Source of the DNA: Alphaproteobacteria bacterium
Lineage (GTDB): Bacteria > Pseudomonadota > Alphaproteobacteria > UBA8366 > GCA-2717185
Assembly (NCBI GenBank): GCA_021774385.1
Contig: JAJFJC010000261.1
Coordinates: 2,413-66,412, forward strand
Direction: 5' to 3'
DNA: 64,000 bases
Shown: positions 7,301-52,316 of the stretch, one piece after another
Layout of the letters: each line of letters starts with the position of its first letter
Numbering within the stretch: the first letter of the stretch is position 1
Notes under the pieces: generated by a model
What the model was told of the DNA's origin: nothing
Databases searched by the model: none
Seen by the model: the letters and a program-made list of their open reading frames with translations, nothing else
Program-made: the position numbers and the translations under genes

Positions 7301-7799
7301 CGCGCCTGCTGAACCTCACACGCAATCGGCCGCCACTTAATGCGGCGTCATAATCAACTGGCCGATTCCAATCGAACACCAGCCTGGTATAGGTCGGATG
7401 TTCGCCAACTCGGACACCCAATTTCGGACGTGCCTTAGCCGATGACTGCGGCCTGCGAAGGTCGAGAACAATTGCATTGTCGTTTTTAAAGGACCGAAGC
7501 GTAAAATCTCCTGCGAGAGAAAACCGGGCTACACGTTGGTCTCTCGATATTGAGGCCTTCGTGACATACCCTTGAAGATTCTGTAACGCTGCTCCGAACC
7601 GCGCGGTTATCGGCTTGTTAAAACGAACGCTTAAATTGCGATTTTGGATGCGGGCGGTATACGCAACCGAAGATGGCCAATCGAAAACGAGTCGGCCAAA
7701 TTTCGGATGCGACCAACCCCGAACTTCGACATCAACGCCGAATGCCAGCCCTGGGAATAAAACTAAAATCAGAGCAATCAGAACGCGGATCGCGATCAA
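4314..7799 (-). CDS. Secreted 1161-aa protein: signal peptide, three FDW/FEW beta-modules (AMIN-like by pattern), Pro/Lys/Glu-rich linker, long TPR-like C-terminal half
   Basis: The N-terminus MIAIRVLIALILVLFPGLAFG is a signal peptide. Repeated modules are GRLVFDWPSSVAY, TRLVFDWNRPVDY and LVNFVFEWPEPVGA. The C-terminal half is helical-repeat rich. Its start overlaps the motB stop by 4 nt. Confidence 0.6.
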   Translation of the reverse strand: MIAIRVLIALILVLFPGLAFGVDVEVRGWSHPKFGRLVFDWPSSVAYTARIQNRNLSVRFNKPITARFGAALQNLQGYVTKASISRDQRVARFSLAGDFTLRSFKNDNAIVLDLRRPQSSAKARPKLGVRVGEHPTYTRLVFDWNRPVDYDAALSGGRLRVRFSRRAQIDLDSLRRQLPADIGNLKSSSEGNTLEFIAAVSGTPRLRHFRSGTKVVVDIMVKGGDAAKAPPSKGDKPQPVSKKPASSQGSLLDAAEKAIENAKQTAASASPRNLLATKNEQPKPELPKERPAEPASTDQAAPKETVAETEPTATEPKPTVAPQPVTASPSKGKRSGVIAEAFRNSKTAPSGDSTNRSLVNFVFEWPEPVGAAVFERAGFVWVIFDKRKPINLAPLREAGKGLVSGIEQLPIGKASVLRMIPSQGIGAAAKRDGTNWVVEFRRGKTRPDIQIAIDADPDAEGGARLLFPAIDSGRVIRLPDPEVGDLIQVATVQASGQGIAGQRAYPEFQILASAQGIAVIALNDDAELEKDDAGLVLSTPGGLHISGISPDTSVSRGTQAGRSRRIFRLSEWRNGNEKDYFEARQKLQVAAARQPRERRDANRLRLAQFYFARGLGPEAKGVLQVVQSSDARAEAKPEFKAITGAVAALNNDVEAAARNLNDPRLDKYEEIQLWRGVAAARAERWKDAQLLFRQGDAVLHGYPEPLKGALGLLRVETALKARDSGSASRWLATLDKQSKTLTRGELATLRYLQGRLAFVEQDIDRATNLWTELQDSGDSWNAARAELSLVNMGLLQSTMDVDEAIGRLEKLRYQWRGDEFEMQVLRRLGGLYLERDDFRGGLGTYRVIATYFPQHPDTKRIAEVMTDTFKKLYLKGEADKLPPLTALALYDEFRELTPAGPEGNVMIQRLSERLVDVDLLNRAADLLQHQVKFRLKGIERAQVGAKLAFIRLLDRDPKKAIEALRTTVFPRLPEQLDDDRRRIQARAFFETGKVREAIELLAGDVSRNADLLRADIQWRSENWGEASKVLQRLAGEPPAEGTTFDQAEAQLVLNWAVALRLDKDESGLEIVRALYGQAMAASPLSKAFQFIASASSSDAPLDLETITSRIADNGVFEAFLEEYLADNKKRLLKSPVAPVQPDAAPATPPQAAGQESAESKA

Positions 7800-22811: not shown

Positions 22812-22890
22812 CTCCCTTTGACACTGCGCTTCGCACTCTTGGCGTTTGGGTGATATAACGCGAACCTCTACGGTCTTCTGGAGCCAGGAA

Positions 22891-24888
22891 ATGGCGGATC
22901 CGCCGACGGAAAGCATACCGGGCGAGATACTGGTTGGCTCTCTTTCAGAGGTCCTGCACCGTGCCGCAAACCACTATAACCAGGCCGAATACGCGGCAGC
23001 CGCAGCAATTTGCCAGACCGTAGTCGCACAGGATAGCGACAATTCGGAAGCGCTGCATATCCTTGGTCATATCGCCCTGCGAACCGGAGAAACCGATACC
23101 GCAGTCGGCTATTTCACACGCACGGTTACACTCGAGCCAACCGACCCCCGATATAGCCGAAGTTTCGCGGCTTCTCTGGAAATATCAGGCCGCACTAATC
23201 AAGCAATGCACGCCTGGTCTCAGTATATCACGCTTAATGCCGAAGATGCGGATGCGCATTTCCATCTTGCGCGACTCCTTTCCGACAGCGGCGACCATGG
23301 GTTGGCGGCAACTAGGCTTGCCCGTGCGACTCAACTTGAGCCGACCAACCTGGATATACGTTTCGCCCTCTCGGTTTGCCTATATAAGTGTAATGAACTG
23401 TCTGAATCGATTGCGAACTTTGAAGCGCTCCTGAAAATTCGGCCGGACTGGGCAGCTTGCCATAGCGGTTTATCAGCAGCCCTACGCCAAGATCAACAAA
23501 TTGAACGCGCAATTTCCCATGCGGGCTGGGCGGTTTCCCTGCAGCCTGAGGCCTCCGAAGCGCACAACAATCTCGGTTTGGCGTATTTTTCCGCCCAGCG
23601 CACGGACGATACCGTGCGATCTCTCGAACGCGCGCGAGAATTGTCGCCTGACGACGCCGAGGTTTTGAACAATCTAGGTGTCGCAACCGCTCATATAGGG
23701 GACCGAGATCGCGCCAAAGCGTATTATGACCAGGCGTTAAAGTTACGGCCGGGTTGGGCGGAAGCACTCCTCAATCTCGCTAATATTTCGCGCCAGGAGA
23801 ATTTGCTCGAACTTGCCGTGGAGACCTATCAAGAAGCACTGCGCGCCCAACCGGACGACTATCGTATCCTTGGTAGTCTGGCGCTAACGTTCCTTAATTT
23901 GAACGATCCCCAAAACGCCATTGCCAGTTACGAACAGGCACTAGTTCTTGCACCCGGGAACCCGGAATTACGGAAGGGCCTCGGCATCGCACAGTTGCTT
24001 GACGGCCAATTCCAACCCGGCTGGCGCAACTACGAGGCGCGCCTTCTTTGTGGTTTCCAACGCAATTTCAACGTACCGCGCTGGGATGGCGAAGACCTAA
24101 ACGGAGGCAGGCTTCTCATTCATTCCGAACAAGGCTTCGGCGATACGATACAATTTTGTCGTTACTTGCCGCGGGTCGCCGACAAGGCAAACGCGAAATC
24201 CATAATTTTCGAGACACAGCGCCCTCTTCTTCGGCTACTCGCCACCGTCGAGGGAGTCGATGAAGTCATTGCCCGGGGCGATGCCTTACCCGAAATCGAT
24301 CGACATGTTCCGCTTCTAAGTTTGCCAGCGATTTTCGAGACGGATTTCGAGACTATTCCAGGTCAACATCCCTACATCGCCGCGAACGAGCATGATCACC
24401 CAGATTGGCGACCTAGGCTCGCCGGTGACAAGCCCCGTATCGGTATCGTTTGGAAAGGAAATCCACGACGACAGGATGACGATAAGCGTTCCTGTCCGGT
24501 CGCCGCTTTCGAACCCATTTTAAAACTGTCCAATTACCAATTTTTCAGTTTGCAAATCGACGCCGATTTCAGTGAAACATCATGGTTCGGCAAACATGGT
24601 GTCGCCGATCTTGCAAACAATATCAAAGACTTCTCGGATACAGCGGCGATAATCGCGGAACTAGACCTCGTCATCAGCGTCGACACCGCGACAGCACATT
24701 TAGCCGGTGCGTTGGGAAAGCCTGTTTGGGTTCTTCTTGGTCACGCCGCGGATTGGCGTTACCTAACGGCGAGAGACGATTCGCCCTGGTATCCCAGCAT
24801 GCGATTGTTTCGACAAAGTAATAGAGACAATTGGCGCGAACTCGCCAATCAGGTTTCAAGGACGCTTAATCAATCGTTCGATTTCTAA
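22891..24888 (+). CDS. Bipartite TPR protein with C-terminal GT9-like (heptosyltransferase-fold) glycosyltransferase domain
   Basis: I prefer the ATG at 22891 over the track's TTG at 22846. There are about 10 TPR-like repeats. The C-terminal motifs GFGDTIQFCRYLP and DTAAIIAELDLVISVDTATAHLAGALGKPVWVLL are typical of GT9-fold enzymes. Confidence 0.7.
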   Translation: MADPPTESIPGEILVGSLSEVLHRAANHYNQAEYAAAAAICQTVVAQDSDNSEALHILGHIALRTGETDTAVGYFTRTVTLEPTDPRYSRSFAASLEISGRTNQAMHAWSQYITLNAEDADAHFHLARLLSDSGDHGLAATRLARATQLEPTNLDIRFALSVCLYKCNELSESIANFEALLKIRPDWAACHSGLSAALRQDQQIERAISHAGWAVSLQPEASEAHNNLGLAYFSAQRTDDTVRSLERARELSPDDAEVLNNLGVATAHIGDRDRAKAYYDQALKLRPGWAEALLNLANISRQENLLELAVETYQEALRAQPDDYRILGSLALTFLNLNDPQNAIASYEQALVLAPGNPELRKGLGIAQLLDGQFQPGWRNYEARLLCGFQRNFNVPRWDGEDLNGGRLLIHSEQGFGDTIQFCRYLPRVADKANAKSIIFETQRPLLRLLATVEGVDEVIARGDALPEIDRHVPLLSLPAIFETDFETIPGQHPYIAANEHDHPDWRPRLAGDKPRIGIVWKGNPRRQDDDKRSCPVAAFEPILKLSNYQFFSLQIDADFSETSWFGKHGVADLANNIKDFSDTAAIIAELDLVISVDTATAHLAGALGKPVWVLLGHAADWRYLTARDDSPWYPSMRLFRQSNRDNWRELANQVSRTLNQSFDF

Positions 24889-25841: not shown

Positions 25842-25856
25842 GCACATAGTGTGCCA
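25842..25856 (-). promoter_or_regulatory. Candidate sigma-54 promoter of flbT-flaF
   Basis: The minus strand reads TGGCACACTATGTGC, with GG-N10-GC spacing. It lies about 130 nt upstream of the flbT start. Confidence 0.5.
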
Positions 25857-25880: not shown

Positions 25881-25918
25881 AAAACAAAAAAAGGGCGGCG
25901 AAAAATTCGCCGCCCCCC
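25881..25918 (-). terminator. Rho-independent terminator downstream of flagellin 1
   Basis: The minus-strand RNA reads GGGCGGCGAA-UUU-UUCGCCGCCC followed by UUUUUUUGUUUU. This is a 10-bp GC-rich stem plus a U-tract, about 25 nt after the flagellin stop. Confidence 0.85.
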
Positions 25919-25942
25919 CCTTGTAGAGTGTCTTGTGCTGGC

Positions 25943-26770
25943 TTAACCGAACAGTGCGAGAATCGAACGTTCGCTCTGACTTGCCAATGCCAAGGAGTTA
26001 ATGCCCAACTGCTGTCTTGTTTGAAGAGCCAGCAGATTGGCGCTTTCCTCGTTAAGGTCGGCCTGCGTCAGCTTGGTTGCACCACCTTCCAGGGTATTAA
26101 CCAGGTCAGCCGTGAAATCGAACCGCGCGGTAAGGACCGACGCATTGGAGCCCAAGGTGGACGCCGTTGTCCGTAGGGTCGTCAACGCCGAATTGACCGC
26201 GGTAATCGCTGCATCAATGTTCGTATCGGCGGCGAAATCGCCCTGAGCAACGTCGATATTGATGCCAGCGGCGGCGGTCGTGGTATCGACACCCGAAATT
26301 GTCAACGCGCTCGAACCGTCCTCGTTGAAGTTGACGGTCAAGTTATCGGGTGTCGTCTTCAAGAGATTTGTACCGGCGAAACTGGTATCGTTGGTAATCG
26401 CATCGATTTGGCTAAGAAGCGCATTGAACTGAACGCCAAGTGAAGAGCGCTCGTTCGTGTCACTCGTCGCCTTCGCCGTGATCGCCAAACCTTTGGCTTG
26501 TTCCGCCAGTTCGGTAATAGCGTCGATACCGGCAATAGCGGCCTCGACCGCACTAATACCCTGATCGATATCGGATTTCAGACCATCCAAATCACTCGCC
26601 CGGGAAGTCAAGGATTGTGACGCAAAAAATGCAGATGCGTCATCAAGCGCTGAGTTCACGCGAAGGCCAGTAGCTAGTCTGTTCTGAGTAGAGTCAATTT
26701 GGCGTTGTGTAAGCTGAAGTGTCAGCAGATTGGAACGAACAGCGCCGGATAGTGAAATACTGTCAGCCAT
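25943..26770 (-). CDS. Flagellin (short alphaproteobacterial type, 275 aa), copy 1
   Basis: The N-terminus is SGAVRSNLLTLQLTQRQIDSTQNRLATGLRVNSALDDASAFFASQSL. The C-terminus is ADLNEESANLLALQTRQQLGINSLALASQSERSILALFG. Both are conserved flagellin D0/D1 helices. Confidence 0.92.
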   Translation of the reverse strand: MADSISLSGAVRSNLLTLQLTQRQIDSTQNRLATGLRVNSALDDASAFFASQSLTSRASDLDGLKSDIDQGISAVEAAIAGIDAITELAEQAKGLAITAKATSDTNERSSLGVQFNALLSQIDAITNDTSFAGTNLLKTTPDNLTVNFNEDGSSALTISGVDTTTAAAGINIDVAQGDFAADTNIDAAITAVNSALTTLRTTASTLGSNASVLTARFDFTADLVNTLEGGATKLTQADLNEESANLLALQTRQQLGINSLALASQSERSILALFG

Positions 26771-26921: not shown

Positions 26922-26936
26922 GCAAACTATGTGCCA
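26922..26936 (-). promoter_or_regulatory. Sigma-54 promoter of flagellin 1 (perfect consensus)
   Basis: The minus strand reads TGGCACATAGTTTGC (TGGCAC-N5-TTGC). It lies about 150 nt upstream of the start at 26770, implying a leader of about 140 nt. Confidence 0.75.
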
Positions 26937-27089: not shown

Positions 27090-27917
27090 TTAACCGAAGA
27101 GGTTCAGGATAGCTCTTTCACTTTGCGCCGCCAGCGAAAGTGAGTTCAAACCCAGTTGTTGACGGGTCTGTAACGATAGCAAATTCGCGCTTTCCTCATT
27201 AAGGTCGGCAAGCGTCAGTTTGCCGGCACCTTCGTCCAACGTATTGACAAGGTCCTCGGTGAAATCCAGGCGGGTTTGCAGCACCGAATTGTTCGAACCC
27301 AACGTCGCCGCGGTCGTGCGCAATGTGGTCAACGCATTGCGTGTCGCTGTCAAAGCCAAATCGATGTTCGTGTCGGCGGCAAAATCACCGATTGCCCCCG
27401 CGACGTTGATACCAGTCGCGGCCGTTGTCGAATCAATACCAAGAATGGTGATCTGGCTCGAAGAATCCTCATTGAAATCCACGACCAAGTTATCGGGCGT
27501 GGCCTGAATAATATTCTGCCCGTTGTAGCTTGAGTCGTTGGAGAGATTATCGATCTGTAGAAGCAAAGCGTTGAACTGCACACCAAGCGAAGATCGTTCG
27601 TTGGTATCGCCGGTCGCCTTTGCGGTAATCGCAATACCTTGGGCCTGCTCGATAAGCTGCGTGATCGACTCAATACCATTGACCGCCGCCGTCAAAGCGC
27701 TAATAGATTGATCTATATTATCCTTAAGACGGTTTAGATCGTCTGCCCGAAAACTTAACGCCCGTGCCGCGAAGAATGCGGCAGCGTCGTCGAGCGCGGA
27801 ATTAACCTTCAAGCCCGTGGCGAGACGCACCTGTGTCCGGTCGCCGAGGTCAATTGTCCGTTGCAGCGTAAGCAAATTGCTTCGGATCGCAGCCGAAAGC
27901 GCAATTTTTTCCGCCAT
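27090..27917 (-). CDS. Flagellin (275 aa), copy 2, diverged tandem paralogue of copy 1
   Basis: It has the same length and architecture as copy 1. The shared block is ITAKATGDTNERSSLGVQFNALLLQID (ITAKATSDTNERSSLGVQFNALLSQID in copy 1). The C-terminus is ADLNEESANLLSLQTRQQLGLNSLSLAAQSERAILNLFG. Confidence 0.92.
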   Translation of the reverse strand: MAEKIALSAAIRSNLLTLQRTIDLGDRTQVRLATGLKVNSALDDAAAFFAARALSFRADDLNRLKDNIDQSISALTAAVNGIESITQLIEQAQGIAITAKATGDTNERSSLGVQFNALLLQIDNLSNDSSYNGQNIIQATPDNLVVDFNEDSSSQITILGIDSTTAATGINVAGAIGDFAADTNIDLALTATRNALTTLRTTAATLGSNNSVLQTRLDFTEDLVNTLDEGAGKLTLADLNEESANLLSLQTRQQLGLNSLSLAAQSERAILNLFG

Positions 27918-28027: not shown

Positions 28028-28042
28028 GCAATGCTCATGCCA
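28028..28042 (-). promoter_or_regulatory. Sigma-54 promoter of flagellin 2
   Basis: The minus strand reads TGGCATGAGCATTGC, with GG-N10-GC spacing and a TTGC -12 element. It lies about 110 nt upstream of the start at 27917. Confidence 0.7.
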
Positions 28043-28158: not shown

Positions 28159-29265
28159 TTACCCGCTCGTGGCACTCACGACGGCATTACGCACATCGCG
28201 AATTTCCGCAACGCCGATATCCTGGGAAAACGGTAACCCAATGACGGAAGTGGCGAGGGATTCCGTAACGGGAAGAGGCAAGCGGGGCATGTTCTTGAAA
28301 GCCGCCATCCTATGGCATCCCGCTCCCCACCATTGACGTGTCGCGATACCCGCATTTGACAGTACCGACATGGCCCGTTCGGCATGCCCTTCGGTCAATT
28401 GTATATTGAAAGTCGAGTGCACCTGTGATGCAAAAAAACCAGGAGCCGGCCGAACCTTAGGCACCTCGACAAATGCTTCCCGGTATCGCGCGCCCGCCGC
28501 CGCAAAAGCCGCCCGGGTCTCCGGCCAACGATCCAGCGCGGCCATACCAACCGCCGCCGTGTATTCGCTTATTTTCGCGTTCAAACCATCGAGTTCAGCC
28601 TCCCGGCGCGCCGCGAAACCAAAATTCGATAAAGCCCGAATTCGGGCGGAGAGCACCTTATCCCGGCTTCCAACCAACGCCCCTTCGCCTATGCCAAGAA
28701 CCTTTGTGGCGTGCAGGCTAATCACAACCGGTGCATCGCCGAATTGCGCACCGTCAAACGCCGCCGCCGCATCAACGACAACAGGGATCCCGGTATCCTG
28801 ACGAAACGTCTCCCAGCCCTCGATATCCACCGGCGCACCAAACGCCGAAATCGCCATAACCGCGCCGACCGGCCCGCCTATCTCTTTGAGTGCTCGTCGC
28901 GCGATGTCTGGCGTCAGCATCCATGTCGCGGCATCGACATCGACGAACAAAGGCTGCATCCCGGCCCATCGCGCGGCATGCGCGCTCGCCGCGAAGGTCC
29001 ATGACGGCATAACGCAATAGGCACCAGATTCAGGTTCATAGGCCCTCAGGCTAAGCATCAATCCCATCGTGCCACTTGCCACGCAAACCATTGTCTCCAT
29101 ACTTAAATCCAACGATTTTGCAAGGCGCTCCTCAAATGCGTTAACCATTGGTCCGAAATTTGAATACCAGCGTGCCTGGTCAATCCGCCGCAAGTACGGC
29201 AACAATGCGTCAGCCGTCGGCAACAACGGTCGCATTAGCGGTATTCGCGGATTTTGCGTTGTCAT
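28159..29265 (-). CDS. DegT/DnrJ/EryC1/StrS-family PLP-dependent (sugar) aminotransferase
   Basis: 368 aa with the family pattern SGTMGLMLSL. The PLP-lysine context is VISLHATKVLGIGEGALV. Confidence 0.8.
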   Translation of the reverse strand: MTTQNPRIPLMRPLLPTADALLPYLRRIDQARWYSNFGPMVNAFEERLAKSLDLSMETMVCVASGTMGLMLSLRAYEPESGAYCVMPSWTFAASAHAARWAGMQPLFVDVDAATWMLTPDIARRALKEIGGPVGAVMAISAFGAPVDIEGWETFRQDTGIPVVVDAAAAFDGAQFGDAPVVISLHATKVLGIGEGALVGSRDKVLSARIRALSNFGFAARREAELDGLNAKISEYTAAVGMAALDRWPETRAAFAAAGARYREAFVEVPKVRPAPGFFASQVHSTFNIQLTEGHAERAMSVLSNAGIATRQWWGAGCHRMAAFKNMPRLPLPVTESLATSVIGLPFSQDIGVAEIRDVRNAVVSATSG

Positions 29266-29421
29266 GCAATGATTCCGGCTCGTGGATTCAATTTCACATC
29301 GTTCCTAGCACGATTCACGCCGAACGACGGCCCTTACACCATTCAAAGCCACGCGGTGCACAAAATCTAATCGGAAAACAGCATTGCAACAGCACCGCAA
29401 TCGCGGCTAAATCGGAAAATC

Positions 29422-30219
29422 ATGACCCACGAGTTCCCGACAAACGAAACCGAACCACGGGATGCGCTTTCGGCGGACGGATGGTTCCTTTCTCGACAGG
29501 CTGTGCCCGATGCGCTGCTTATCCGGCTCCGCGACGACCTGCAATCAATCTACAAGAAACGGCGGGCAATCCAGATTCGCAACGGTATCGGTGAGGGCAT
29601 GGTCGGAACCTGTCATCACCTTCTCGGTGAAAACAGCGCAATGGACGACCTTATAAAATTGTTGCCTTTGCACGACGAAGTTCGATCCTTTTTTGGTAGC
29701 CCCTACATTCTCAATTCTTTTGGCGGATTTATAAACAAGAAGGAGAACGCCGAAGGCTACATCGGCGCGATTCATAGAGACGTACGAACTTTTTCGCGCG
29801 ATTTCAGACTAATGATCAATATGCTGGTTATGCTCGACGATTTCACCACCGAAAACGGCGCAACATATCTCATGCCCGGTTCGCAACACGACCCCGACAA
29901 GCCTACGGAACATCAATTTCGCGACGCGGCGGTTCGCGCCACTGGCACGGCGGGCGATATTTTAGTATTCGATTCGAGGCTTTGGCATGCCGCTGGTTCG
30001 AATGCGACAACGCAGTCCAGGTGCGCGCTAACCCTGACATTTACGCGCCCCTTCTTCAAACCACAGCTCGATTATCCCCAATTCTTGGGCGAAAACTACG
30101 CCATGTCCCTATCACCCGAAGTTCGACAAGTGCTTGGATATGATGCGCAGGTCCCGCGCAGCATCGACGCGTTTTACCAACCGCCCGCGCGGCGTGCCTA
30201 TAAATCCGACCAAGGATAA
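29422..30219 (+). CDS. Phytanoyl-CoA dioxygenase (PhyH)-family Fe(II)/2-oxoglutarate oxygenase
   Basis: 265 aa. The HxD-type ligand context is GAIHRDVR, the distal His context is RLWHAAGSN, and YLMPGSQH is also present. Confidence 0.7.
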   Translation: MTHEFPTNETEPRDALSADGWFLSRQAVPDALLIRLRDDLQSIYKKRRAIQIRNGIGEGMVGTCHHLLGENSAMDDLIKLLPLHDEVRSFFGSPYILNSFGGFINKKENAEGYIGAIHRDVRTFSRDFRLMINMLVMLDDFTTENGATYLMPGSQHDPDKPTEHQFRDAAVRATGTAGDILVFDSRLWHAAGSNATTQSRCALTLTFTRPFFKPQLDYPQFLGENYAMSLSPEVRQVLGYDAQVPRSIDAFYQPPARRAYKSDQG

Positions 30220-30234
30220 CAAGGAAGCCGCCCC

Positions 30235-30966
30235 ATGGCCGATATTCACCGAGAATTCGACGAATTGAACCGGATTGCCGAGGATTATGACGACGGCCCT
30301 TTCGACAACGCAATGCGAAACTACATGATGCGCAGCCTAAAACCGCATTTGCGCGCAGGTAAAGCCTTGGAAATGGGTTGCTTCAATGGCGCCTTTTCCG
30401 TCTGCCTCGCGCAAGAATTCGGCGACTTGACGGTTGTCGACGCCGTGGACCAATTTCTTGACATCGTACGGGTAAAATTAGGCGCAAGTGTGCAAACTGT
30501 CTGCTGCCTGTTCGAAGATTACGATACCGACGAGCGGTATGATTCGATCTTTATCGTCCATGTCCTGGAGCACCTGCTGGATCCCGTGGCAATACTGCGC
30601 AAGGCAAAATCTCTACTCGCCCCGAATGGCCGAATTTTTTTGGTCGTCCCAAACGGCGCTGCGGCGTCACGGCGCATTGCCGTCAAAATGGGAATACTCC
30701 CGACACTGGACGCCTTGTCGGAGGCGGATACCAAACACGGGCATCGGCGTATCTACTTCTTCGACACGCTTGCTAACGACGCTCGTCGGGCCGGCCTGGA
30801 CATCGTCGAAACTGGTGGCATATTTTTCAAACCACTCGCCAATTTTCAATTTGATGAACTGATGGGCGGACCGCTATTAAGCGAAGGCTTTCTTGAAGGG
30901 TGTTACCAGCTTGGCAAGGAGGAGCCTGGGTTTTCCGCAAGTATTTTCGCCATTTGCGAGGCCTAA
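30235..30966 (+). CDS. Class I SAM-dependent methyltransferase
   Basis: 243 aa. Motif I is KALEMGCFNGAFS. The post-I acidic residue is in LTVVDAV, and the motif II/III region is YDSIFIVHVLEHLLDP...LLAPNGRIFLVVPN. Confidence 0.75.
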   Translation: MADIHREFDELNRIAEDYDDGPFDNAMRNYMMRSLKPHLRAGKALEMGCFNGAFSVCLAQEFGDLTVVDAVDQFLDIVRVKLGASVQTVCCLFEDYDTDERYDSIFIVHVLEHLLDPVAILRKAKSLLAPNGRIFLVVPNGAAASRRIAVKMGILPTLDALSEADTKHGHRRIYFFDTLANDARRAGLDIVETGGIFFKPLANFQFDELMGGPLLSEGFLEGCYQLGKEEPGFSASIFAICEA

Positions 30967-31034
30967 CCCCCTCTTTACCCTTCGGTCGCGACGGCATACG
31001 ATTACATATTGCATAACTTTTTGTCGGAAAACTG

Positions 31035-32111
31035 ATGCCTCGGACAGCGACTATCGACCTTCGGACCGAAGAATTATCACCCGTAAGCGGCCCGGCGGCC
31101 TGGTACGGCCCCCACATGGCCACGCAGTCCGATTCTTGGATTTACCACTTAAGCAAAGCTCATATCGCCGAATTCATGGAAGCGATCGATGCGGTCCGTA
31201 ACCGAGAAGTTCTAGAAATCCGCAAGAGTGATTTCCGGCTGCCGAAATTGGGTGAGCTCCTTCGTGAAATTCGGGCGGAAACACTGCATGGTCGTGGTTT
31301 TTCCCTACTTCGCGGCATCCCGGTCTCGGCATTGAGCAGCCGTGAGGCAGCGATTGGGTTTTGGGGCATCGGACAACACCTTGGTCAGGCGGTTTCTCAA
31401 AATGGTAAGGGCCATGTTTTGGGGCATGTGCAAGACCTCGGTCTGGACTATGCCAGTCCGCAGGCACGTGGCTATCAAACCAGCGCCCGCCTGCCTTACC
31501 ATACCGATTCATCCGATTTGGTTTGTCTATTATCTTTGCAAACCCCGCAATCAGGGGGCCTTAGCAGCATCGTCAGTTCGGTTACGGTTTACAACGAATT
31601 GCTGCGCGCCAACCCTGAATTTGTCGAACTCTTGACCAACCCTGTCTATCGCACGCGGTGGGGCGAAGTCCCGGAAGGCAAAAAACCCTATAGTGAAATT
31701 CCGGTTTTCAATCCCCACCAAGGAAACGTCATCACAACCTATGTCCGAAGCGCTATTCGCAAGGGTCAGAAACTCGCCGGCGTTCCGCGCCTCACCGACG
31801 AACACGAGAAAGCGTTTGATAGGATTGATGCCTTAGCGGGTGACGCCGCGCTGCGCTTGGATATGGAATTTCAGGTTGGCGATATCCAAATTCTGAACAA
31901 CCACCAAATCATGCATTCCCGCACGGCCTACAAGGACCATGATGAACCAGCCCGACGACGCCACCTCCTGCGGCTTTGGCTCGCTTGCGAGGACGGTCCC
32001 GCCCTGCCACCGGTGATGACGACTACCCACCAGGGAACGACGAAAAGCGGCAGACCGAATGGAATCCAAGTTCCGGGCGTTCCCTTCAAAGCCCCCCTAA
32101 CGGCGGAATAA
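31035..32111 (+). CDS. TauD/TfdA (clavaminate-synthase-like) family Fe(II)/2-oxoglutarate dioxygenase
   Basis: 358 aa. The HxD motif is in LPYHTDSSD. The distal His and Arg are in NHQIMHSRTAYKD...RRHLLRLW. Confidence 0.7.
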   Translation: MPRTATIDLRTEELSPVSGPAAWYGPHMATQSDSWIYHLSKAHIAEFMEAIDAVRNREVLEIRKSDFRLPKLGELLREIRAETLHGRGFSLLRGIPVSALSSREAAIGFWGIGQHLGQAVSQNGKGHVLGHVQDLGLDYASPQARGYQTSARLPYHTDSSDLVCLLSLQTPQSGGLSSIVSSVTVYNELLRANPEFVELLTNPVYRTRWGEVPEGKKPYSEIPVFNPHQGNVITTYVRSAIRKGQKLAGVPRLTDEHEKAFDRIDALAGDAALRLDMEFQVGDIQILNNHQIMHSRTAYKDHDEPARRRHLLRLWLACEDGPALPPVMTTTHQGTTKSGRPNGIQVPGVPFKAPLTAE

Positions 32112-32121
32112 ACAAGGGAAT

Positions 32122-32676
32122 TCAAGGCTGCTGACCGCGTCCGGTGTGCTTGAAATACCGGTCCCGTGTGATGCCTAAAATGACATTGTCGTGGAATTGG
32201 TTGCGGCGAAAAAATGCGCGCGCCTTGCGACCCTCTTCAATCCACCCACACTTGCCAAGATATAGTCCCAGCGATGCGATATTGTGGGCAATTATCGTCG
32301 TATCGAGTCGTTCAAGGCCCAATTCCTCAAAGGCATAGCGCATCGTCGCTCGCACCGCGTCGGCGCCGAAGCCCTTGCGCCGCAAGGCCGGCATGCCGAC
32401 CATGATGCCAGTGAAGGCATTTCTGTCTTTCCAATTGATATTCACCAGATTCGTCATGCCGATTGGGCCATATTCGATTGTATCAATAACGAAGCGTTGG
32501 TCTAAGCCATCATGACGAAAGGTTTCAAACCACTGCAGTATCGCGGTTTCGGAAAGAGGGAAATGCCACTGCCCCAAATTAAACTGAATTTCCGGATCGT
32601 TAGCCCACTGGTGTAGCGCCGCCAAATCGGATTTTTCCACCGCGCGTAGTGTTATTTTGTCACCATGGACATTCAT
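32122..32676 (-). CDS. GNAT-family N-acetyltransferase (RimJ/RimL-like)
   Basis: 184 aa. The acetyl-CoA pocket pattern is TGIMVGMPALRRKGFGADAVRATMRYAFEELGLERL. Confidence 0.75.
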   Translation of the reverse strand: MNVHGDKITLRAVEKSDLAALHQWANDPEIQFNLGQWHFPLSETAILQWFETFRHDGLDQRFVIDTIEYGPIGMTNLVNINWKDRNAFTGIMVGMPALRRKGFGADAVRATMRYAFEELGLERLDTTIIAHNIASLGLYLGKCGWIEEGRKARAFFRRNQFHDNVILGITRDRYFKHTGRGQQP

Positions 32677-32692
32677 CCCTCAATTCCTTTCC

Positions 32693-33589
32693 TCAACCAA
32701 CCATCGATGCCCGATAAGCTGGGAAATAGCCTGTGTCGTGGTCGATGTTCGCACCACTTAGTTCACTGTAACGCGCTGGATCCAACACTTTACCGCACAA
32801 ATAGGCCGATTTCGCGCAATTCGAAAAGCCGCGCTTGAAACGTGCCAGACCATCATTCGAGTTCTCTTCCAGTCCCGCGCCGCCGCCTAGATCAAACGTT
32901 TTGACATCATCGAAGCGCCGAAACGCGGCATCATACAATAGATACGCAGCGCCATGGCGCCTGCCCGTCTCGCTCGACGCGGCTAAATGGCTGTGCATGT
33001 GGTCCCCACAACGTACCCACAAGTGACAGGCCACGAGTTCCCCACCGACGAACGCGCCAAAACTCACCAAACCATCCAGGTCGGCGAGTCGCTGAAATAT
33101 TCGAACCGAGAAGGCGGCGGTCCCAACGATATGGTGACGGGACACCAATTCCTCATAAAGGCGTAGCCAATCGGCCATATGTTCGGCAAGGCCTATCTCT
33201 CGAATTTCTGCATCCGCACGCCGCAATTCATAGCGATGATGCTTGGAATAGGCCGGGTACAATTCCGTCCTGCGATGGAAATAGTGAGTTTTAAATTCTT
33301 TATATATATCAAAATACTGTGAAGGTTTATTATCACGAATTTTGAAGAAAGGATCCGCCACGAAAACAACCGAAACCAAACCGGCATCACGTAACCTATC
33401 CAATCCGGCTTGTATATCGATGTTTTCACCGAAGACCGCGACAGGGTAGCAGCCCACGGCATCGGCGACGGCCATTCCTTCGATAGGCCGGCGAAGAACG
33501 CAAAGTCCCCATTCGGGAACGGGAATTACACGATCAACCTCCTCGGCAAGCAATTCCGCATATTGCCGACTGGCATAAGGATGTATCAT
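32693..33589 (-). CDS. FemAB-like / Acetyltransf_6-type GNAT-fold acyl- or aminoacyl-transferase
   Basis: 298 aa. The C-terminal pattern FDLGGGAGLEENSNDGLARFKRGFSN is typical of the PF13480-type family, as I recall it. It overlaps the upstream PLP-enzyme gene by 4 nt. Confidence 0.55.
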   Translation of the reverse strand: MIHPYASRQYAELLAEEVDRVIPVPEWGLCVLRRPIEGMAVADAVGCYPVAVFGENIDIQAGLDRLRDAGLVSVVFVADPFFKIRDNKPSQYFDIYKEFKTHYFHRRTELYPAYSKHHRYELRRADAEIREIGLAEHMADWLRLYEELVSRHHIVGTAAFSVRIFQRLADLDGLVSFGAFVGGELVACHLWVRCGDHMHSHLAASSETGRRHGAAYLLYDAAFRRFDDVKTFDLGGGAGLEENSNDGLARFKRGFSNCAKSAYLCGKVLDPARYSELSGANIDHDTGYFPAYRASMVG

Positions 33590-34623
33590 TCGAGAGCGTC
33601 CATGAAAGCCGTCGCGACAAATGCCATGTCGTCGCCATTATACCGTTGATCGCAGGGCAACAGCAGCAGTTCCCGGCTTAGCGCGTGAGCCGCGGGAAAC
33701 ATTGAGCGCTCGGAGGGCAGATCCGGCCAATAACGCGCGGGGAAAATTCGATTGGCGCGTAGCCTCTCCCAAACCGCATCCCGGTTCCTGATTCGAACAG
33801 GAAACCCCATGGGAACAAATTCTGGCTCTAAATCTGGAAATAACGCGAATTCCTGCAGCTTTCCCGCGAGAAACGTATAATTTTCACACCGCCGCCGGCT
33901 TGCCGATGCCGCATCGATACCAGCCAGCAACCGCCGGGTTATGTCAGAAATCGGCTCATCGGAGACGGTCATTTCCGCCTCGACTTGACGATAGGCATCA
34001 TACCATCGCCGATTATCGCGCTCTTCAGCATCATCACGCCGCATCACGCGCGGGCGTTCCCGGTTTTTCGAGGTGTGTTCGGGGTGGGCAACCGGCTTCA
34101 AATGTCCCCCTGAATGGACCATGATCCCGCCATCGGGAACGCCGAATAGTTTTCGGGGGCTATAAAGAACCCAATTTGCCCAAGGTTCGGCCGCGGGCAT
34201 CAACGCTTGCGCACGATCCTCGACCCACAAAACCTCGTGCGTTTGCGCGACGAAGGATCGAAACATCTGTTCCGGCTGACAGCCGAAATAATCCACCGCG
34301 AGGACACAATCTCCCTCACGAAGCGACCGTGAAAGGACATCGGTATCGGGTGATAGCCGATTAATCAGGGGGTAAAAAAGGACCTCTCGTTCCTCCCCTG
34401 CCGCGCTAACCAGTTCGCGGCATATAAATTCCGGCAAAAATAGGCGCTTTATCTCGAATTGTTGCAGTAAGTGAGCCAGCGCACTGCGAGCATTGGCGAA
34501 AAACCAGGCGTTCGTCTCTTCGACATCCCATAATGAAAGTACATTTTCGGAGATATTTGGGCTTAGGGATTCCAACGGCAGGAAACCGCCGATAGCGCGC
34601 CTATTTACGGCTGGCGTCGACAT
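33586..34623 (-). CDS. DegT-like PLP-dependent transferase (second aminotransferase-fold enzyme), 345 aa
   Basis: I chose the ATG at 34623, which gives MSTPAVNRRAIGG... This start shares one base with the upstream stop (TAATG). The track ORF extends to 34749, inside the upstream gene. The Lys context is WVLYSPRKLFGVPDGGIMV. Confidence 0.55.
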   Translation of the reverse strand: MSTPAVNRRAIGGFLPLESLSPNISENVLSLWDVEETNAWFFANARSALAHLLQQFEIKRLFLPEFICRELVSAAGEEREVLFYPLINRLSPDTDVLSRSLREGDCVLAVDYFGCQPEQMFRSFVAQTHEVLWVEDRAQALMPAAEPWANWVLYSPRKLFGVPDGGIMVHSGGHLKPVAHPEHTSKNRERPRVMRRDDAEERDNRRWYDAYRQVEAEMTVSDEPISDITRRLLAGIDAASASRRRCENYTFLAGKLQEFALFPDLEPEFVPMGFPVRIRNRDAVWERLRANRIFPARYWPDLPSERSMFPAAHALSRELLLLPCDQRYNGDDMAFVATAFMDALE

Positions 34624-36887
34624 TATGAAGCATCCGCCGATCGTGGGCCGGCCCTTAAAAGGAATTGCGCGAAGCTGTCCGCGGCCGCATGGTCTTCGAA
34701 CAAACGGTCGCACCGGTCTTGGATTCGTTTTCCCAATTTCGAGCGCCATGCCCGGTTAGTGCCCAATCTCAATGCGATATCAATGTAGGATTCGCTTGTT
34801 GCCGCGATCAATTCTGATATTTCCAAGCGCTCATATAACGCCATTGTCGAGCGCCCGCGCGCGAAGCGGCTTGGAAAGGTAACAATCGGCACGCCCATCG
34901 CGAGCCCTTGATAAGCGGTGTTCCCTCCACTAAACGGCCAGGTATCAAGAAGAACATCCGTCACACATAGAATATTTAAGAAATTAGTTAAACTTTGCCT
35001 TTTTAATATTTGAACTCTCTCAATATTTTCGCCAAATTGTTTTGCCCATCTTTGCTTTAAAAGGTCTGACCAATGAGGTTCCGGCCCCTCGAATACGATG
35101 ATTGACGCCTTAGGGTCCCTCTTGAGGATCTCGGCAAAAGCCGAATCCATATCTGGATGAATTTTAAAGAGGCTTTGAGGACACACATAAAGCGTCGCGT
35201 TTTCCGGCAACCCAAACGCATCACGCAGCTTTAGGGGATACGGCCGCACTGGGCGGTCATAGTCGACCAACACACCGTCCAGCGCGGCAAGCTCTTCGCT
35301 ATAATACGCCGACGCATCTGGTTGCTCCAACGGCGCGCTGCTAATGAAATAGTCAATTGCTGGTATTCCCGTAGTATCGGGATGTCCGTTCGTCACACAT
35401 TGCACCGGCGCCAACCTCGAAAAGGCAAGAAAATAGGTCAACGGCTCCATGCCGATATCCGTGTATACCAGAACATCGAGCTTTTCGCGCGCAAGTCGTT
35501 CCCTTGCTTGAATTAGGCCGTTCGGTAGGATCACGGCATTGTCCACATCTTCCGCAATCGCGCGCCAGACAGGATCGTTATCGTCGAGAAATGTAAAAGC
35601 CGAGACGTGGATTTTCTCGCGCGATAGATGCCGCAAAATTCGGTGATAACACCACCCTACCGCATGATTCCGAAGGTAACGCGAAACAAAACCAACTTTT
35701 ATTTTCCGATTAGTCCGTCGTTCGGGCTTCTTGCAGTGCGGCGCCACAAACTCAAGCGTGGGACATGCCTTGGCATAGAGACGTGCAATTTTGCCGTTCA
35801 AAACACGATTATCTTCATCGTGATAGGACAGATGAAAATTAGTGATACCGACCTCGTTTATGGGGTCGTCGATATGTATTTTCTCCGCCAGCAACGCGTC
35901 GATTGCTGATTCCGTTTTTTCGCGCGCTTCCGCCATGGCGTGGATGGAAGAAGGGATGACAGGCAGAAGCGTCGCTAGCCGTATCCGCACACCCGGGTCT
36001 GGGCGAACCTGCAAAGCGGCACGATAGCTCGATGCAGCATCTTCATAGCGTCCTTGGCGCCGTAAAACATTACCAAGATTCCCGTACGCTTCAGGGGATT
36101 CTGGGTTTAATGTAATTAATCGGCGAAGAGTTGCTTCGGCAACAGCCGTATTCCCATCCGCAAGAAATGCAACAGCCATATTATTTAATGTTTCTTGATT
36201 GTTAGGATCAATATTTAAAGAAACACTATAATGTTCCAAAGCTTCGGAAAGCGCACCGCTTTCCATCCTAACCACGCCCAAATTGTTCCGGACGGTAATA
36301 TCCGAGGGAAAAGCGCTGACGAGTGATTGATATATTTCCGTCGCTCGCTTCAGGTCGCCGCGACGGCGGAAAATTTGCGCCAGACCAAGTTGTGCCGTGC
36401 GGTGCGAGGGCTGAGATTTGAGGGCCGATACATAATGCGCCTTTGCGCCGCTTATGTCGTTACGATCGAAAAGCGAATTACCGAGATTACAATGGGCATC
36501 GAGTAATTCAGGGTCGATCGCCAGCGCCTCTTGAAACACCTTCTCCGCATAGGCGGTATCGCCAATTGCACGGGCGGAAACACCGAGATTATTGAGAAAC
36601 GATGCATTTCGAGGCGCGCATGCGACGGCTTTCTCGAAAAAAACAAAAGCATCATGATGATGGCCCCGGCCGGCCGCGATGACGCCAAGCATATGGAGTG
36701 CATCGGCGTGATGCGGTTCGACTGACAGTATTTCGCGATATTTCACCCAAGCTTCGTCGATACGTCCCGCACGATGATCGCGAACAGCCTCCGCGTATTG
36801 AAATTTCGTTTGATCACGTTCGATCATGCTATTCCCACCAAACAAGGCGCGGTCGAAGCGAATTGCGTAGCTCCCTCTATGCAACAC
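34623..36887 (-). CDS. Bipartite TPR protein with C-terminal GT41-like (O-GlcNAc-transferase/SPY-like) domain; candidate flagellin glycosyltransferase
   Basis: 754 aa with about 9 TPR repeats in the N-terminal half. The C-terminal half has KVGFVSRYLRNHAVGW, VLVYTDIGMEPLTYFLAFSRLAPVQCVTNGHPDTTGIPAIDYFISS and DTWPFSGGNTAYQGLAMGVPIVT, typical of GT41-type domains. Confidence 0.7.
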   Translation of the reverse strand: MLHRGSYAIRFDRALFGGNSMIERDQTKFQYAEAVRDHRAGRIDEAWVKYREILSVEPHHADALHMLGVIAAGRGHHHDAFVFFEKAVACAPRNASFLNNLGVSARAIGDTAYAEKVFQEALAIDPELLDAHCNLGNSLFDRNDISGAKAHYVSALKSQPSHRTAQLGLAQIFRRRGDLKRATEIYQSLVSAFPSDITVRNNLGVVRMESGALSEALEHYSVSLNIDPNNQETLNNMAVAFLADGNTAVAEATLRRLITLNPESPEAYGNLGNVLRRQGRYEDAASSYRAALQVRPDPGVRIRLATLLPVIPSSIHAMAEAREKTESAIDALLAEKIHIDDPINEVGITNFHLSYHDEDNRVLNGKIARLYAKACPTLEFVAPHCKKPERRTNRKIKVGFVSRYLRNHAVGWCYHRILRHLSREKIHVSAFTFLDDNDPVWRAIAEDVDNAVILPNGLIQARERLAREKLDVLVYTDIGMEPLTYFLAFSRLAPVQCVTNGHPDTTGIPAIDYFISSAPLEQPDASAYYSEELAALDGVLVDYDRPVRPYPLKLRDAFGLPENATLYVCPQSLFKIHPDMDSAFAEILKRDPKASIIVFEGPEPHWSDLLKQRWAKQFGENIERVQILKRQSLTNFLNILCVTDVLLDTWPFSGGNTAYQGLAMGVPIVTFPSRFARGRSTMALYERLEISELIAATSESYIDIALRLGTNRAWRSKLGKRIQDRCDRLFEDHAAADSFAQFLLRAGPRSADAS

Positions 36888-37119: not shown

Positions 37120-37134
37120 TTAACAGTACGTTAA
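37120..37134. promoter_or_regulatory. Perfect TTAA-N7-TTAA (CtrA-box type) site
   Basis: TTAACAGTACGTTAA lies in the 589-bp divergent intergenic region. It is about 110 bp upstream of the flaG sigma-54 promoter and about 235 bp upstream of the GT41-like gene start. Confidence 0.5.
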
Positions 37135-37238
37135 TGTTTCTTTGCACAATATTAACAAGTGTGGTTGTTACGACTTCGTCTTGCCAGAGAGATATTCAAC
37201 ACAGCAAGATTCGAGGAACGAACCGCCACGGCGGAATT

Positions 37239-37253
37239 TGGCACTTAGTTTGC
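37239..37253 (+). promoter_or_regulatory. Sigma-54 promoter (perfect consensus) upstream of flaG
   Basis: TGGCACTTAGTTTGC differs from the flagellin 1 promoter by one base in the spacer. It lies about 225 nt upstream of the flaG ATG. Confidence 0.7.
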
Positions 37254-37476
37254 ATGTCGTTAGTTGGATTTCGAATTCCTGGTCGTCAGGCCACTTCGAA
37301 ATCTAGGAACATAAGATGGTTTGGTTTTCATTTTCTTGCACAGTGGCGACAGAATACGTCGTGCGGGGAAATCGGTGATAAAGGCGAGTTAGAATTTTCG
37401 TCGATTGACACCGGCCCATTGAGACCAAATCAACTGTTCGCGCATTTGACAGAACGCCGATTGCGGGAGATATGAG

Positions 37477-38127: not shown

Positions 38128-38142
38128 TGGCCCGTTGCTTGC
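38128..38142 (+). promoter_or_regulatory. Candidate sigma-54 promoter of fliK-flgD-flgE
   Basis: TGGCCCGTTGCTTGC has GG-N10-GC spacing and a TTGC -12 element. It lies 35 nt upstream of the fliK ATG. Confidence 0.6.
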
Positions 38143-51527: not shown

Positions 51528-52316
51528 ATGTCACTTCGACCGATAGCAGCCGACACACCCGACCCAGCGGCTCGCCGCAAGATAATTGCCGTTGCCTCGG
51601 GCAAGGGTGGCGTGGGCAAAACCTGGTTCTCGATTTCTCTAAGCCAAGCGCTGAGCCAAAGCGGCCAGCGAACCCTCCTTTTCGACGGTGACCTTGGTTT
51701 GGCAAATGTCGACATACAACTTGGCCTGATGCCAAAGCAGGACCTCGCCGGGGTAATCGCTGGGAAACTTACCTTACCGCAAGCGATTACCAACTATCGC
51801 GAGGGGCAGTTCGATATTTTGGCCGGCCGTTCCGGCGCTGGGAATTTGGCAATGCTACCCGTACAGCGGCTCGTCACGCTTCGTGACAATCTGATGCGCC
51901 TGGCCGGAAAATACGATCGAGTCATTCTAGATCTAAGTGCCGGTGTCGACCGCACGGTCCAGACTCTTGCCGCGGCCGCGGGAACCGCCTTGGTCGTTAC
52001 GACGGACGAACCGACTTCACTCACCGATGCCTATGCCTTCATCAAACTGACCGTCGCCGACCATCCAGAGGCCGATTTGCGGATCGTCGTGAACATGGCG
52101 GAGACATCGAACAGTGGGCGCGAGACATATGAGACCTTGCGCAAGGCTTGTTACAATTTTCTTGGGAGGGAAATTCCCTTGGCCGGAATTGTTCGAAACG
52201 ACAGCAAGGTGCGCGAAAGCATTCGTCGCCAAACAGCACTCCTGACCCGCCACCCCTCAGCCGAGGCCGCGCAGGATGTCGAAGCGATCGCCGCCCGATT
52301 GAAGCGGGAGACATGA
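51528..52316 (+). CDS. flhG: MinD/ParA-type ATPase FlhG (FleN/YlxH)
   Basis: 262 aa with the deviant Walker A VASGKGGVGKT. It lies directly after flhF with a 0-nt gap. Confidence 0.85.
   Translation: MSLRPIAADTPDPAARRKIIAVASGKGGVGKTWFSISLSQALSQSGQRTLLFDGDLGLANVDIQLGLMPKQDLAGVIAGKLTLPQAITNYREGQFDILAGRSGAGNLAMLPVQRLVTLRDNLMRLAGKYDRVILDLSAGVDRTVQTLAAAAGTALVVTTDEPTSLTDAYAFIKLTVADHPEADLRIVVNMAETSNSGRETYETLRKACYNFLGREIPLAGIVRNDSKVRESIRRQTALLTRHPSAEAAQDVEAIAARLKRET

Follow-up and report, generated by a model that had tools for sequence, protein, structure and literature searches.

The viosamine islands of Pseudomonas syringae pv. tabaci and P. aeruginosa PAK, which have been experimentally characterized (PMC3927599), are among the closest described counterparts of the system analyzed here, a group of eight genes lying beside two tandem flagellin genes in a 64-kb stretch of alphaproteobacterial DNA (contig JAJFJC010000261.1 of assembly GCA_021774385.1; this whole stretch is hereafter called the window). 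These islands code for VioA, VioB, VioM, VioT, VioS, VioR, and an acyl carrier protein (ACP). Like the window, they form part of a flagellar cluster and lack a nonulosonic-acid pathway. Both also join a DegT-family aminotransferase (of the C4 type, putatively so in the window) to a methyltransferase, an enzyme for N-acylation, and a large dedicated glycosyltransferase; the genes for the 4-keto-6-deoxy precursor of the Pseudomonas islands are found elsewhere, and the content of these islands varies between strains. Unlike them, the window has no domain of the VioB-type left-handed β-helix (LbH) N-acyltransferase (present in the sister islands L086 to L088, see following), 3-oxoacyl-ACP synthase, reductase, or ACP among the open reading frames (ORFs) scanned with Pfam. 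It has instead a GNAT, a FemX-like enzyme, a second and divergent pyridoxal phosphate (PLP) enzyme, and two Fe(II)/2-oxoglutarate oxygenases. Its glycosyltransferase carries tetratricopeptide repeats (TPR) and belongs to family GT41.

The flagellin islands of enterobacteria, where GT41 glycosyltransferases, DegT aminotransferases, and methyl- and acetyltransferases have been catalogued (De Maayer and Cowan 2016, PMC4875605), resemble the window in being hypervariable and adjacent to flagellin, in associating a SPINDLY/OGT-type GT41 with DegT, S-adenosylmethionine (SAM)-dependent methyltransferases, and acetyltransferases, and in that most lack genes for pseudaminic (Pse) or legionaminic (Leg) acid. 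They differ in being gammaproteobacterial, known from comparative genomics only, and in that most of their GT41 proteins are fused to methyltransferase domains; dioxygenases are not mentioned in the main text of that work. FlmG of Caulobacter crescentus and Brevundimonas subvibrioides has, like the island enzyme, N-terminal TPR and a C-terminal GT-B domain (PMC7591256; 10.1101/2022.03.25.485807), and these systems, like the window, are alphaproteobacterial and have short flagellins of ~275 aa. Their donors are cytidine monophosphate (CMP)-Pse or CMP-Leg, and the window lacks the core genes for both.

The premise of the original prediction for this locus, namely that characterized flagellin O-glycosylation is a matter of Pse and Leg pathways, was incomplete, given the Pseudomonas and enterobacterial islands. 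A variable flagellin-side island with a dedicated TPR-type glycosyltransferase, a DegT enzyme, and methyl- and acyltransferases but without a Pse/Leg core is already known, so that the combination is not as novel in kind as had been supposed; its exact gene set at a flagellin locus was found in no paper of the literature searched. Nor does that literature describe the cassette of divergent PLP enzyme, FemX-like enzyme, GNAT, PhyH oxygenase, and methyltransferase (to which this lineage adds TauD), the close association of the cassette with GT41, or the coexistence of GT41 with an enzyme of the FlmG family. The results presented here support the view that the eight genes are a flagellin-associated tailoring or glycosylation island. 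We consider it fairly probable that a hypervariable island for flagellin glycosylation is present here in one of its variants, in which the GT41 enzyme would transfer to flagellin a decorated amino sugar made by the cassette.

The GT41 transferase and its slot beside the flagellins

The catalytic domain of the island glycosyltransferase matches, in the PDB, the OGT of Thermobaculum (5DJS, E = 9e-35), XcOGT (2VSN, E = 7e-24), and human OGT, and its N-terminal residues ~40-300 match several TPR families (E = 1e-20 to 1e-37). By sequence, it is a genuine member of the OGT/SPINDLY-type transferases (GT41), the catalytic domain having at least 2,189 homologs at E < 1e-10. The ORF as listed begins at a GTG (36887). 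The true start is probably the ATG at 36827, 20 codons downstream, which gives a protein of 734 aa, homologs having 731-733 aa.

Related genomes have genes of the same kind at the same place (loci in other genomes are numbered with the prefix L). In three independent relatives, L001, L006, and L007, the gene order is the one of the window, with 51-81% protein identity, and this recurrence puts the arrangement beyond chance. Identical or reduced versions of the island occupy the slot between flaG and the flagellins in L001, L002/3, L006, and L007; among these, L002 and L003 keep GT41-protein 7-FemX-like-GNAT-methyltransferase-PhyH and lack DegT1 and TauD (protein 7 being the divergent PLP enzyme). 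Homologs of GT41 at 41-69% identity are found in this slot in relatives, including L086, L087, and L088 (47-52% identity), where the surrounding flagellar clusters are related to that of the window and their flagellins share 65-70% identity with its own. The three latter islands retain an ortholog of DegT1 (47-51% identity) directly beside the flagellins and one to three TPR-GT41 genes, the paralogs standing in tandem where there are two or three. The genes swapped in are an acetyltransferase of the NeuD/PglB/VioB family (172 bits in L086, for a cut-off of 160.8), a WbqC-family protein, a different PhyH protein, a HAD hydrolase, and a 303-aa protein of no family. To judge from these sequences, the slot is a hypervariable glycosylation island whose fixed elements are DegT and between one and three TPR-GT41 genes, those for acyl tailoring being exchanged. 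Known flagellin glycosylation islands have been described as behaving in this way, keeping the transferase and the aminotransferase while the acyl-tailoring genes change.

The two flagellins of the window are 70% identical to each other, have Ser/Thr-rich centers, and are the presumed acceptors. Just 3′ of flagellin A lies a very strong intrinsic-terminator-like hairpin (25884-25924, minus strand), with a 19-bp stem followed by a T run. Sites of the sigma54 type (TGGCAC-N5-TTGC, searched with up to two mismatches) are found upstream of five genes with zero or one mismatch, on the minus strand for flagellin A (26922-26936), flagellin B (28028-28042), and flbT (25842-25856), and on the plus strand for flaG (37239-37253) and fliK (38128-38142). 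Since the flaG site falls within an ORF of 113 aa without family match (37134-37475), this ORF is unlikely to be a real gene. A perfect TTAA-N7-TTAA, CtrA-box-like site (TTAACAGTACGTTAA, 37120-37134) is also present in the intergenic stretch from which the GT41 operon and flaG diverge, exact matches to this pattern numbering 2 in the 64 kb for 0.69 expected. The expression of flmG in Caulobacter is early and cell-cycle-controlled (PMC7591256), and the position of the site upstream of the GT41 operon may recall this control, as weak evidence by analogy.

The cassette and its predicted chemistry

Six of the eight genes, DegT1, PhyH, methyltransferase, GNAT, FemX-like, and protein 7, form a portable module, found in many phyla and mostly at a distance from flagellar genes. 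Homologs of protein 7 fall into 182 clusters in the protein database, and a scan of 185,579 species genomes (one genome per species) places its relatives at 465 loci, with hosts that include Caulobacterales, Acetobacteraceae, Rhodobacterales, Burkholderiales, Acidobacteriota, Chloroflexota, Planctomycetota, Verrucomicrobiota, and Geobacter. In a census of 85 loci found through protein 7 (best 80 of the 465 protein 7 loci; 10 kb flanks, tblastn, and clustering), a homolog was present in 61 loci for the protein 7 cluster, 57 for the FemX-like gene, 46 for DegT1, 34 for PhyH, 32 for the methyltransferase, and 30 for GNAT. The FemX-like gene adjoins protein 7 in 57 of the 61 loci, the usual neighbors of this pair are the other four genes, and three of these usually come in the order PhyH-methyltransferase-GNAT. 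Recurrent neighbors are a Methyltransf_24 enzyme, GT2 glycosyltransferases, short-chain dehydrogenase/reductase (SDR) dehydratases or epimerases, an ATP-binding cassette (ABC) transporter, and TPR-GT61 proteins.

In ~28 loci, a GT41-like domain is encoded no more than 10 kb from the module. GT41 is directly upstream of protein 7 in the Caulobacterales loci L022, L037, L039, L044, L063, L070, and L071, with PF13844 confirmed in the last two. A Planctomycetaceae metagenome-assembled genome (L080, 6222-15896) has the single-strand operon GT41-PhyH-methyltransferase-protein 7-FemX-like-GNAT-DegT1-GT41, with two FabZ-like genes and a FabG-like SDR gene upstream and no flagellar gene in the flanks. 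Tandem small paralogs near the module in L014 and L080 were considered as alternative acceptors and rejected, these being membrane proteins or FabZ-like dehydratases and not flagellins.

Smaller gene sets also occur: several loci hold protein 7 and the FemX-like gene alone, and in Chitinivorax (L004) the operon reads DegT1-GNAT-protein 7-FemX-like. The gene associations suggest that each aminotransferase has an acyltransferase as its partner (GNAT for DegT1, the FemX-like enzyme for protein 7) and that PhyH and the methyltransferase form a tailoring pair. In the window, protein 7 is translationally coupled to GT41 upstream (TAATG, a 1-nt overlap at 34623) and to the FemX-like gene downstream (a 4-nt overlap, 33586-33589), and a 16-nt gap (32677-32692) separates the latter from GNAT; re-reading the sequence thus bore out the three tight junctions already reported.

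The Pfam run confirmed seven of the eight domain assignments of the original prediction, the remaining one, that of protein 7 as a second DegT-like enzyme, being upheld by other evidence. Although protein 7 has no sequence match in Pfam, NCBIfam, or the PDB, the profile of its family (26 homologs) reaches DegT aminotransferases in the PDB (E = 2e-6), and its AlphaFold model (pLDDT 88.7) matches the folds of PseC, WbpE, ArnB, and DesV at TM 0.6-0.69 with probability 1.0. Asp136 (of the motif IEDRAQA) and Lys158 are invariant in the family. The model and profile place protein 7 in the DegT superfamily as a divergent subfamily, presumably of aminotransferases.

The profile of the FemX-like family matches FemX (E = 1e-13) and the aminoacyl-tRNA-dependent peptide synthase 9WQY (E = 2e-3) in the PDB, with no other match below 0.01. 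Among 25-58 homologs, K252 never varies and F251 is kept in at least 90%; both align with the FK of FemX, whose Lys305 is the catalytic residue and the only reactive one (reviewed in PMC12945691). Glycylation of an amino sugar with Gly-tRNA as donor is reported for Orf11, a FemABX-like enzyme of the streptothricin-like BD-12 pathway (PMC12945691). The island enzyme shares with FemABX transferases, Orf11 included, the PF13480/FemX profile match and the catalytic Lys after Phe, and its acceptor is likely, as for Orf11, an amine on a sugar-type small molecule. It differs from the FemABX transferases of peptidoglycan and antibiotics by its protein-glycan and flagellin context and by its shorter length (298 aa). 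It is best described as a candidate aminoacyl-tRNA-dependent aminoacyl transferase. A literature search with FemAB, nucleotide sugar, aminoacyl-tRNA, and O-antigen returned nothing relevant.

DegT1 is a putative DegT-family PLP sugar aminotransferase, closest to the DesI/VioA-type C4 aminotransferases of nucleoside diphosphate (NDP)-4-keto-6-deoxyhexoses. Its NCBIfam scores are 190.9 bits for DesI, 112.6 for LegC, and 105.3 for PseC, all under the curated cut-offs (650 for the DesI equivalog, 423.5 for PseC); its best PDB matches are DesI (2PO3, E = 6e-50) and 3JU7, and the lysine of SxHxxK is conserved. FlmB of C. crescentus matches it weakly (31% identity over 237 aa), as FlmH matches GNAT (25% over 125 aa, both by tblastn in the window). 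The GNAT is probably an N-acyltransferase distantly similar to PseH and FlmH, scoring 54.8 bits with the PseH model for an equivalog cut-off of 93.1.

The iron-binding triad of the PhyH protein (HRD...H) is conserved across 36 homologs, and its PDB relatives are small-molecule oxygenases, DhiD and TlxI/J, and the sugar-acting EvdO2, AviO1, and KanJ. The methyltransferase is NodS-like by weak matches in Pfam and NCBIfam (45 bits with the NCBIfam NodS model, under the cut-off), NodS being an N-methyltransferase that acts on the amine of glucosamine. TauD has FrbJ (5EQN, E = 4e-45) and 7N7V as best PDB matches, and its HxD and distal His (LPYHTDSSD and IMHSRTAY) align with the iron triad of FrbJ. 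Within the census TauD is found only in the window, L001, and L006. Its family has at least 4,477 homologs at E < 1e-20, and the very many that share 55-60% identity are located in catabolic (LysR/TctC) or unrelated contexts. In L090 and L091, for example, homologs at 55-56% identity adjoin LysR regulators and TctC-family binding proteins, or unrelated genes. The context of TauD was also examined as a clue to its substrate and gave none, the homologs lying in unrelated catabolic loci. TauD has the look of a recent, lineage-specific acquisition of the island, and its predicted role in the glycan is uncertain.

The original prediction had left two options, the decoration of a sugar made elsewhere and a direct action on the side chains of flagellin. 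According to the second, the oxygenases, the methyltransferase, and perhaps the acyltransferases would act on flagellin itself, for example by hydroxylating it or methylating its lysines, for which one can invoke the closeness of these genes to the flagellins, a weak match of the methyltransferase to the protein N-terminal methyltransferase family PF05891 (under the cut-off), and the compatibility of a protein substrate for TauD with the computed results. Lysine methylation of flagellin by FliB is, moreover, known in Salmonella. We find this option highly improbable, since in more than 30 loci, most with no flagellar gene close by, PhyH, methyltransferase, and GNAT keep company with both PLP enzymes and the FemX-like enzyme, the close structural relatives of PhyH and TauD are all small-molecule enzymes, and TauD homologs at 55-60% identity are found in catabolic operons. 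Only 8 of the 85 module loci have a flagellar gene (any of 19) within 10 kb, even with permissive thresholds. Because the cassette moves between non-flagellar glycan loci, several with GT2, ABC-transporter, SDR dehydratase, or NeuB genes, it most likely acts on sugar intermediates in solution rather than on the side chains of flagellin, which favors the first option.

A scheme for the synthesis of such a sugar can be proposed, whose substrates, order of steps, dependence on tRNA, and flagellin acceptor we infer. An NDP-4-keto-6-deoxyhexose from enzymes encoded elsewhere would be aminated by DegT1, and this amine N-acylated by GNAT. Protein 7 would install a second amine, to be aminoacylated from aminoacyl-tRNA by the coupled FemX-like enzyme. 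The product would then be methylated by the NodS-like methyltransferase and hydroxylated by PhyH, and in this lineage TauD may also hydroxylate it. The GT41 enzyme, in the cytoplasm, would put the finished sugar on Ser/Thr of both flagellins before export, its TPR domain recruiting flagellin. The more specific proposal, that the pair of protein 7 and FemX-like enzyme aminates the sugar and aminoacylates it from aminoacyl-tRNA, that GT41 places the resulting N-aminoacyl sugar on flagellin, and that two unrelated classes of TPR glycosyltransferases, GT41 and FlmG-type, modify flagellin in the same cell, is tentative, and we would call it somewhat unlikely in its entirety.

The FlmG-family homolog and the sugar scaffold

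The comparison of the locus with FlmG was made using L089, an FlmG ortholog of Caulobacter retrieved from metagenome contigs scanned with the published flmG forward primer. This ORF of 598 aa starts with MSRKSAL and is followed by a FlmH-like GNAT, as in C. crescentus; it has SDQDLKG where the published internal primer encodes SGQDLRG. Its C-terminus differs from the C. crescentus primer, and it must therefore be the ortholog of a related Caulobacter rather than the C. crescentus gene itself. The BLASTP alignment of this FlmG with the island GT41 runs through the TPR repeats only, and the FlmG glycosyltransferase domain alone has no match in the island gene or in any GT41 gene examined, so that the two catalytic domains are not homologous at the BLAST level. 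Aligned with another TPR protein of the window (22846-24888), on the far side of the flagellins, FlmG gives 25% identity over 534 aa including the entire glycosyltransferase domain (E = 6e-38), and the domain alone matches 24067-24879 (E = 9e-22); with the Brevundimonas orthologs of L046 and L047 it has 48% identity. This second protein has a faint Pfam match to Glyco_transf_9 and matches to heptosyltransferases. The island transferase was thus ruled out as FlmG ortholog, and the earlier comparison of the island with FlmG was misplaced.

The second protein is by similarity a FlmG-family homolog and a second candidate flagellin glycosyltransferase, which would probably add a second glycan or the first sugar. 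It is kept beside flaF in L001-3, L007, and L086-88, where the FlmG glycosyltransferase domain also matches the gene concerned. Two unrelated TPR-GT-B proteins hence flank the flagellins, a lineage-conserved member of the FlmG family and the GT41 of the variable island. L086 has in addition a short FlmG-like gene (TPR and GT9) inside the island. FlmG has been said to be confined to Caulobacterales (2023 preprint). The more distant named relatives of the source lineage are labeled Rhodospirillaceae or Rhodospirillales, its taxon not being firmly placed, and the homolog found in this alphaproteobacterial lineage suggests that the FlmG class reaches beyond Caulobacterales.

No dehydratase, UDP-sugar hydrolase, NeuB-type synthase, or cytidylyltransferase domain was found by Pfam in the 48 ORFs of the window that were scanned, among them the 38 others judged to be genes. 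The validated FlmA, FlmD, NeuB, and FlmC of C. crescentus, used as tblastn queries on the window, gave best E values of 0.18, 4.5, 1.6, and 0.027, respectively, all above 0.01. The claimed absence of these enzymes from the 64 kb is thereby confirmed by two approaches. As Pse and Leg donor genes can be dispersed in the genomes of Caulobacter and Brevundimonas (PMC7591256; 10.1101/2022.03.25.485807), such an absence is weak evidence.

One may ask whether the cassette tailors a sugar of the Pse/Leg type with core genes elsewhere in the genome, transfer being made by the FlmG-family enzyme, by GT41, or by both. The cluster conserves a FlmG-family homolog, and the characterized FlmGs use Pse or Leg (PMC7591256; 10.1101/2022.03.25.485807). 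NeuB adjoins the module in 5 of 88 loci, and in some loci FlmD or FlmA does; in L015 and L016 NeuB is 77% identical to the C. crescentus enzyme, and L016 also has FlmD at 57%. In Brevundimonas sp. R86498 (L046, 165-18140, a complete genome) and in L047, ~18 kb bring together the FlmG ortholog, the module, a GT41-like gene, homologs of FlmA, FlmB, FlmD, FlmH, and NeuB, a cytidylyltransferase, and PhyH-like, SDR, and Methyltransf_24 genes. The distant PseH likeness of GNAT is also in line with this possibility. We nevertheless judge it unlikely, if a serious competitor. DegT1 scores far better with DesI than with PseC or LegC, NeuB is near the module in only these five loci, and the window has no core gene. 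The simplest form of the idea, in which the module is just PseC plus PseH, was ruled out: the scores are under the cut-offs, and L046 has its own FlmB- and FlmH-like genes besides DegT1 and GNAT.

The known donors of GT41 enzymes are uridine or guanosine diphosphate (UDP- or GDP-) hexoses and not CMP-sugars, which counts for a hexose scaffold and against a nonulosonic acid. A 4-amino-4,6-dideoxyhexose of the viosamine type would fit the DesI-like DegT1 and the VioB-family and WbqC genes of the sister islands, and the viosamine island of Pseudomonas, supplied with its 4-keto sugar by genes elsewhere, speaks for it as well (PMC3927599). As to the scaffold taken on its own, we put a 6-deoxyhexose at slightly better than even and a nonulosonic acid clearly behind it, the remainder being left unassigned.

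Several observations weigh against a flagellin glycan made from such a hexose. The window has no nucleotidyltransferase or 4,6-dehydratase, and therefore the sugar scaffold of the proposed scheme is a guess. The DesI, PseC, PseH, NodS, and FemX models all score below their curated equivalog cut-offs, TauD may be a passenger given the frequency of its homologs in catabolic contexts, and the loci with NeuB beside the module are compatible with the tailoring of nonulosonic acids instead. No flagellar-type sigma54 promoter (up to two mismatches) precedes the island operons, and 77 of the 85 module loci have no flagellar gene within 10 kb. The case for flagellin therefore depends on the close relatives and on where the island sits. 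The last two observations, the GT2 and ABC-transporter genes typical of polysaccharide loci beside some modules, and the large size and functional diversity of the TPR-GT41 family could also mean that the island is not dedicated to flagellin, and that GT41 and the cassette serve another protein or the glycans of lipopolysaccharide, capsule, or S-layer. This seems to us very improbable, because in the close relatives examined (L001-3, L006, L007, and L086-88) TPR-GT41 and a DegT1 ortholog hold the slot between flaG and the flagellins (DegT1 being absent in L002/3) while the remaining genes vary, in the pattern of known flagellin glycosylation islands (PMC4875605, PMC3927599); the CtrA-box-like site upstream of the GT41 operon adds weak evidence in the same direction. 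A flagellin glycosylation island thus continues to be the preferred reading.

The locus and its significance

By Pfam annotation, the window is one large flagellar cluster of alphaproteobacterial type. It contains flhB, motB, fliM, fliL, flgF, flgG, flgA, flgH, flgI, flgK, and a flgL-like gene; flaF, flbT, the two flagellins, flaG, fliK, flgD, flgE, fliF, and motA; and a sigma54 activator, flhA, flhF, a MinD-like gene, and fliI. The eight island ORFs occupy the interval from flagellin B to flaG (Table 1), with the number and coordinates first proposed, as the ORF listing bears out. PhyH and the methyltransferase are separated by a 15-nt gap, and the methyltransferase and TauD by one of 68 nt. 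The island has a GC content of 52-55%, like its flanks, and hence no compositional sign of recent transfer. Elsewhere in the cluster, an ORF of 1,161 aa (4314-7799, minus strand) has only faint AMIN-like and TPR matches, and one of 555 aa (52148-53815, plus strand) has no family match, its listed TTG start overlapping the MinD-like gene.

Table 1. Genes of the island, the flagellins, and the FlmG-family homolog in the window
Feature	Coordinates	Strand	Basis and remarks
DegT1	28159-29265	-	DegT_DnrJ_EryC1, 198 bits (Pfam); adjoins flagellin B
PhyH-type Fe(II)/2-oxoglutarate oxygenase	29422-30219	+	Pfam PhyH, 78.5 bits
Class I SAM methyltransferase	30235-30966	+	Pfam Methyltransf_23/11, NodS-like
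TauD/TfdA-type Fe(II)/2-oxoglutarate oxygenase	31035-32111	+	Pfam TauD, 133.8 bits
GNAT, putative N-acyltransferase	32122-32676	-	Pfam Acetyltransf_3, 73 bits
FemX-like transferase (candidate)	32693-33589	-	Pfam Acetyltransf_6 (PF13480), 44.3 bits (cut-off 22)
Protein 7, putative divergent DegT-fold PLP enzyme	33586-34623	-	Profile and AlphaFold model
TPR + GT41 glycosyltransferase	34623-36887	-	PF13844, 88.4 bits (cut-off 25); many TPR matches
Flagellin pair	25943-26770 and 27090-27917	-	Pfam Flagellin_N, Flagellin_C; 275 aa each
Putative FlmG-family TPR + GT9-like GT-B protein, 680 aa	22846-24888	+	BLAST to FlmG ortholog; outside the reported island

The glycans of flagellin influence motility, the assembly of the filament, the adsorption of phages, and recognition by the immune system, and their chemistry is almost unknown outside a few pathogens. 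The locus offers a compact system in this respect, with two short flagellins, two cytoplasmic TPR glycosyltransferases, and a six-gene cassette recurring in hundreds of genomes, and the Brevundimonas of L046, with both systems in one locus, would be well suited as a cultured model in which to tell them apart. Cytoplasmic GT41 and FlmG-type enzymes that use soluble donors are also attractive for glyco-engineering. If the proposed function is true, the tRNA-dependent FemX-like step would be the first described in protein-glycan biosynthesis and would link translation substrates to the decoration of surface glycans, and the cassette, with its 465 loci in many phyla, would account for the N-aminoacyl sugars of many O-antigens, capsules, and other bacterial surface glycans.

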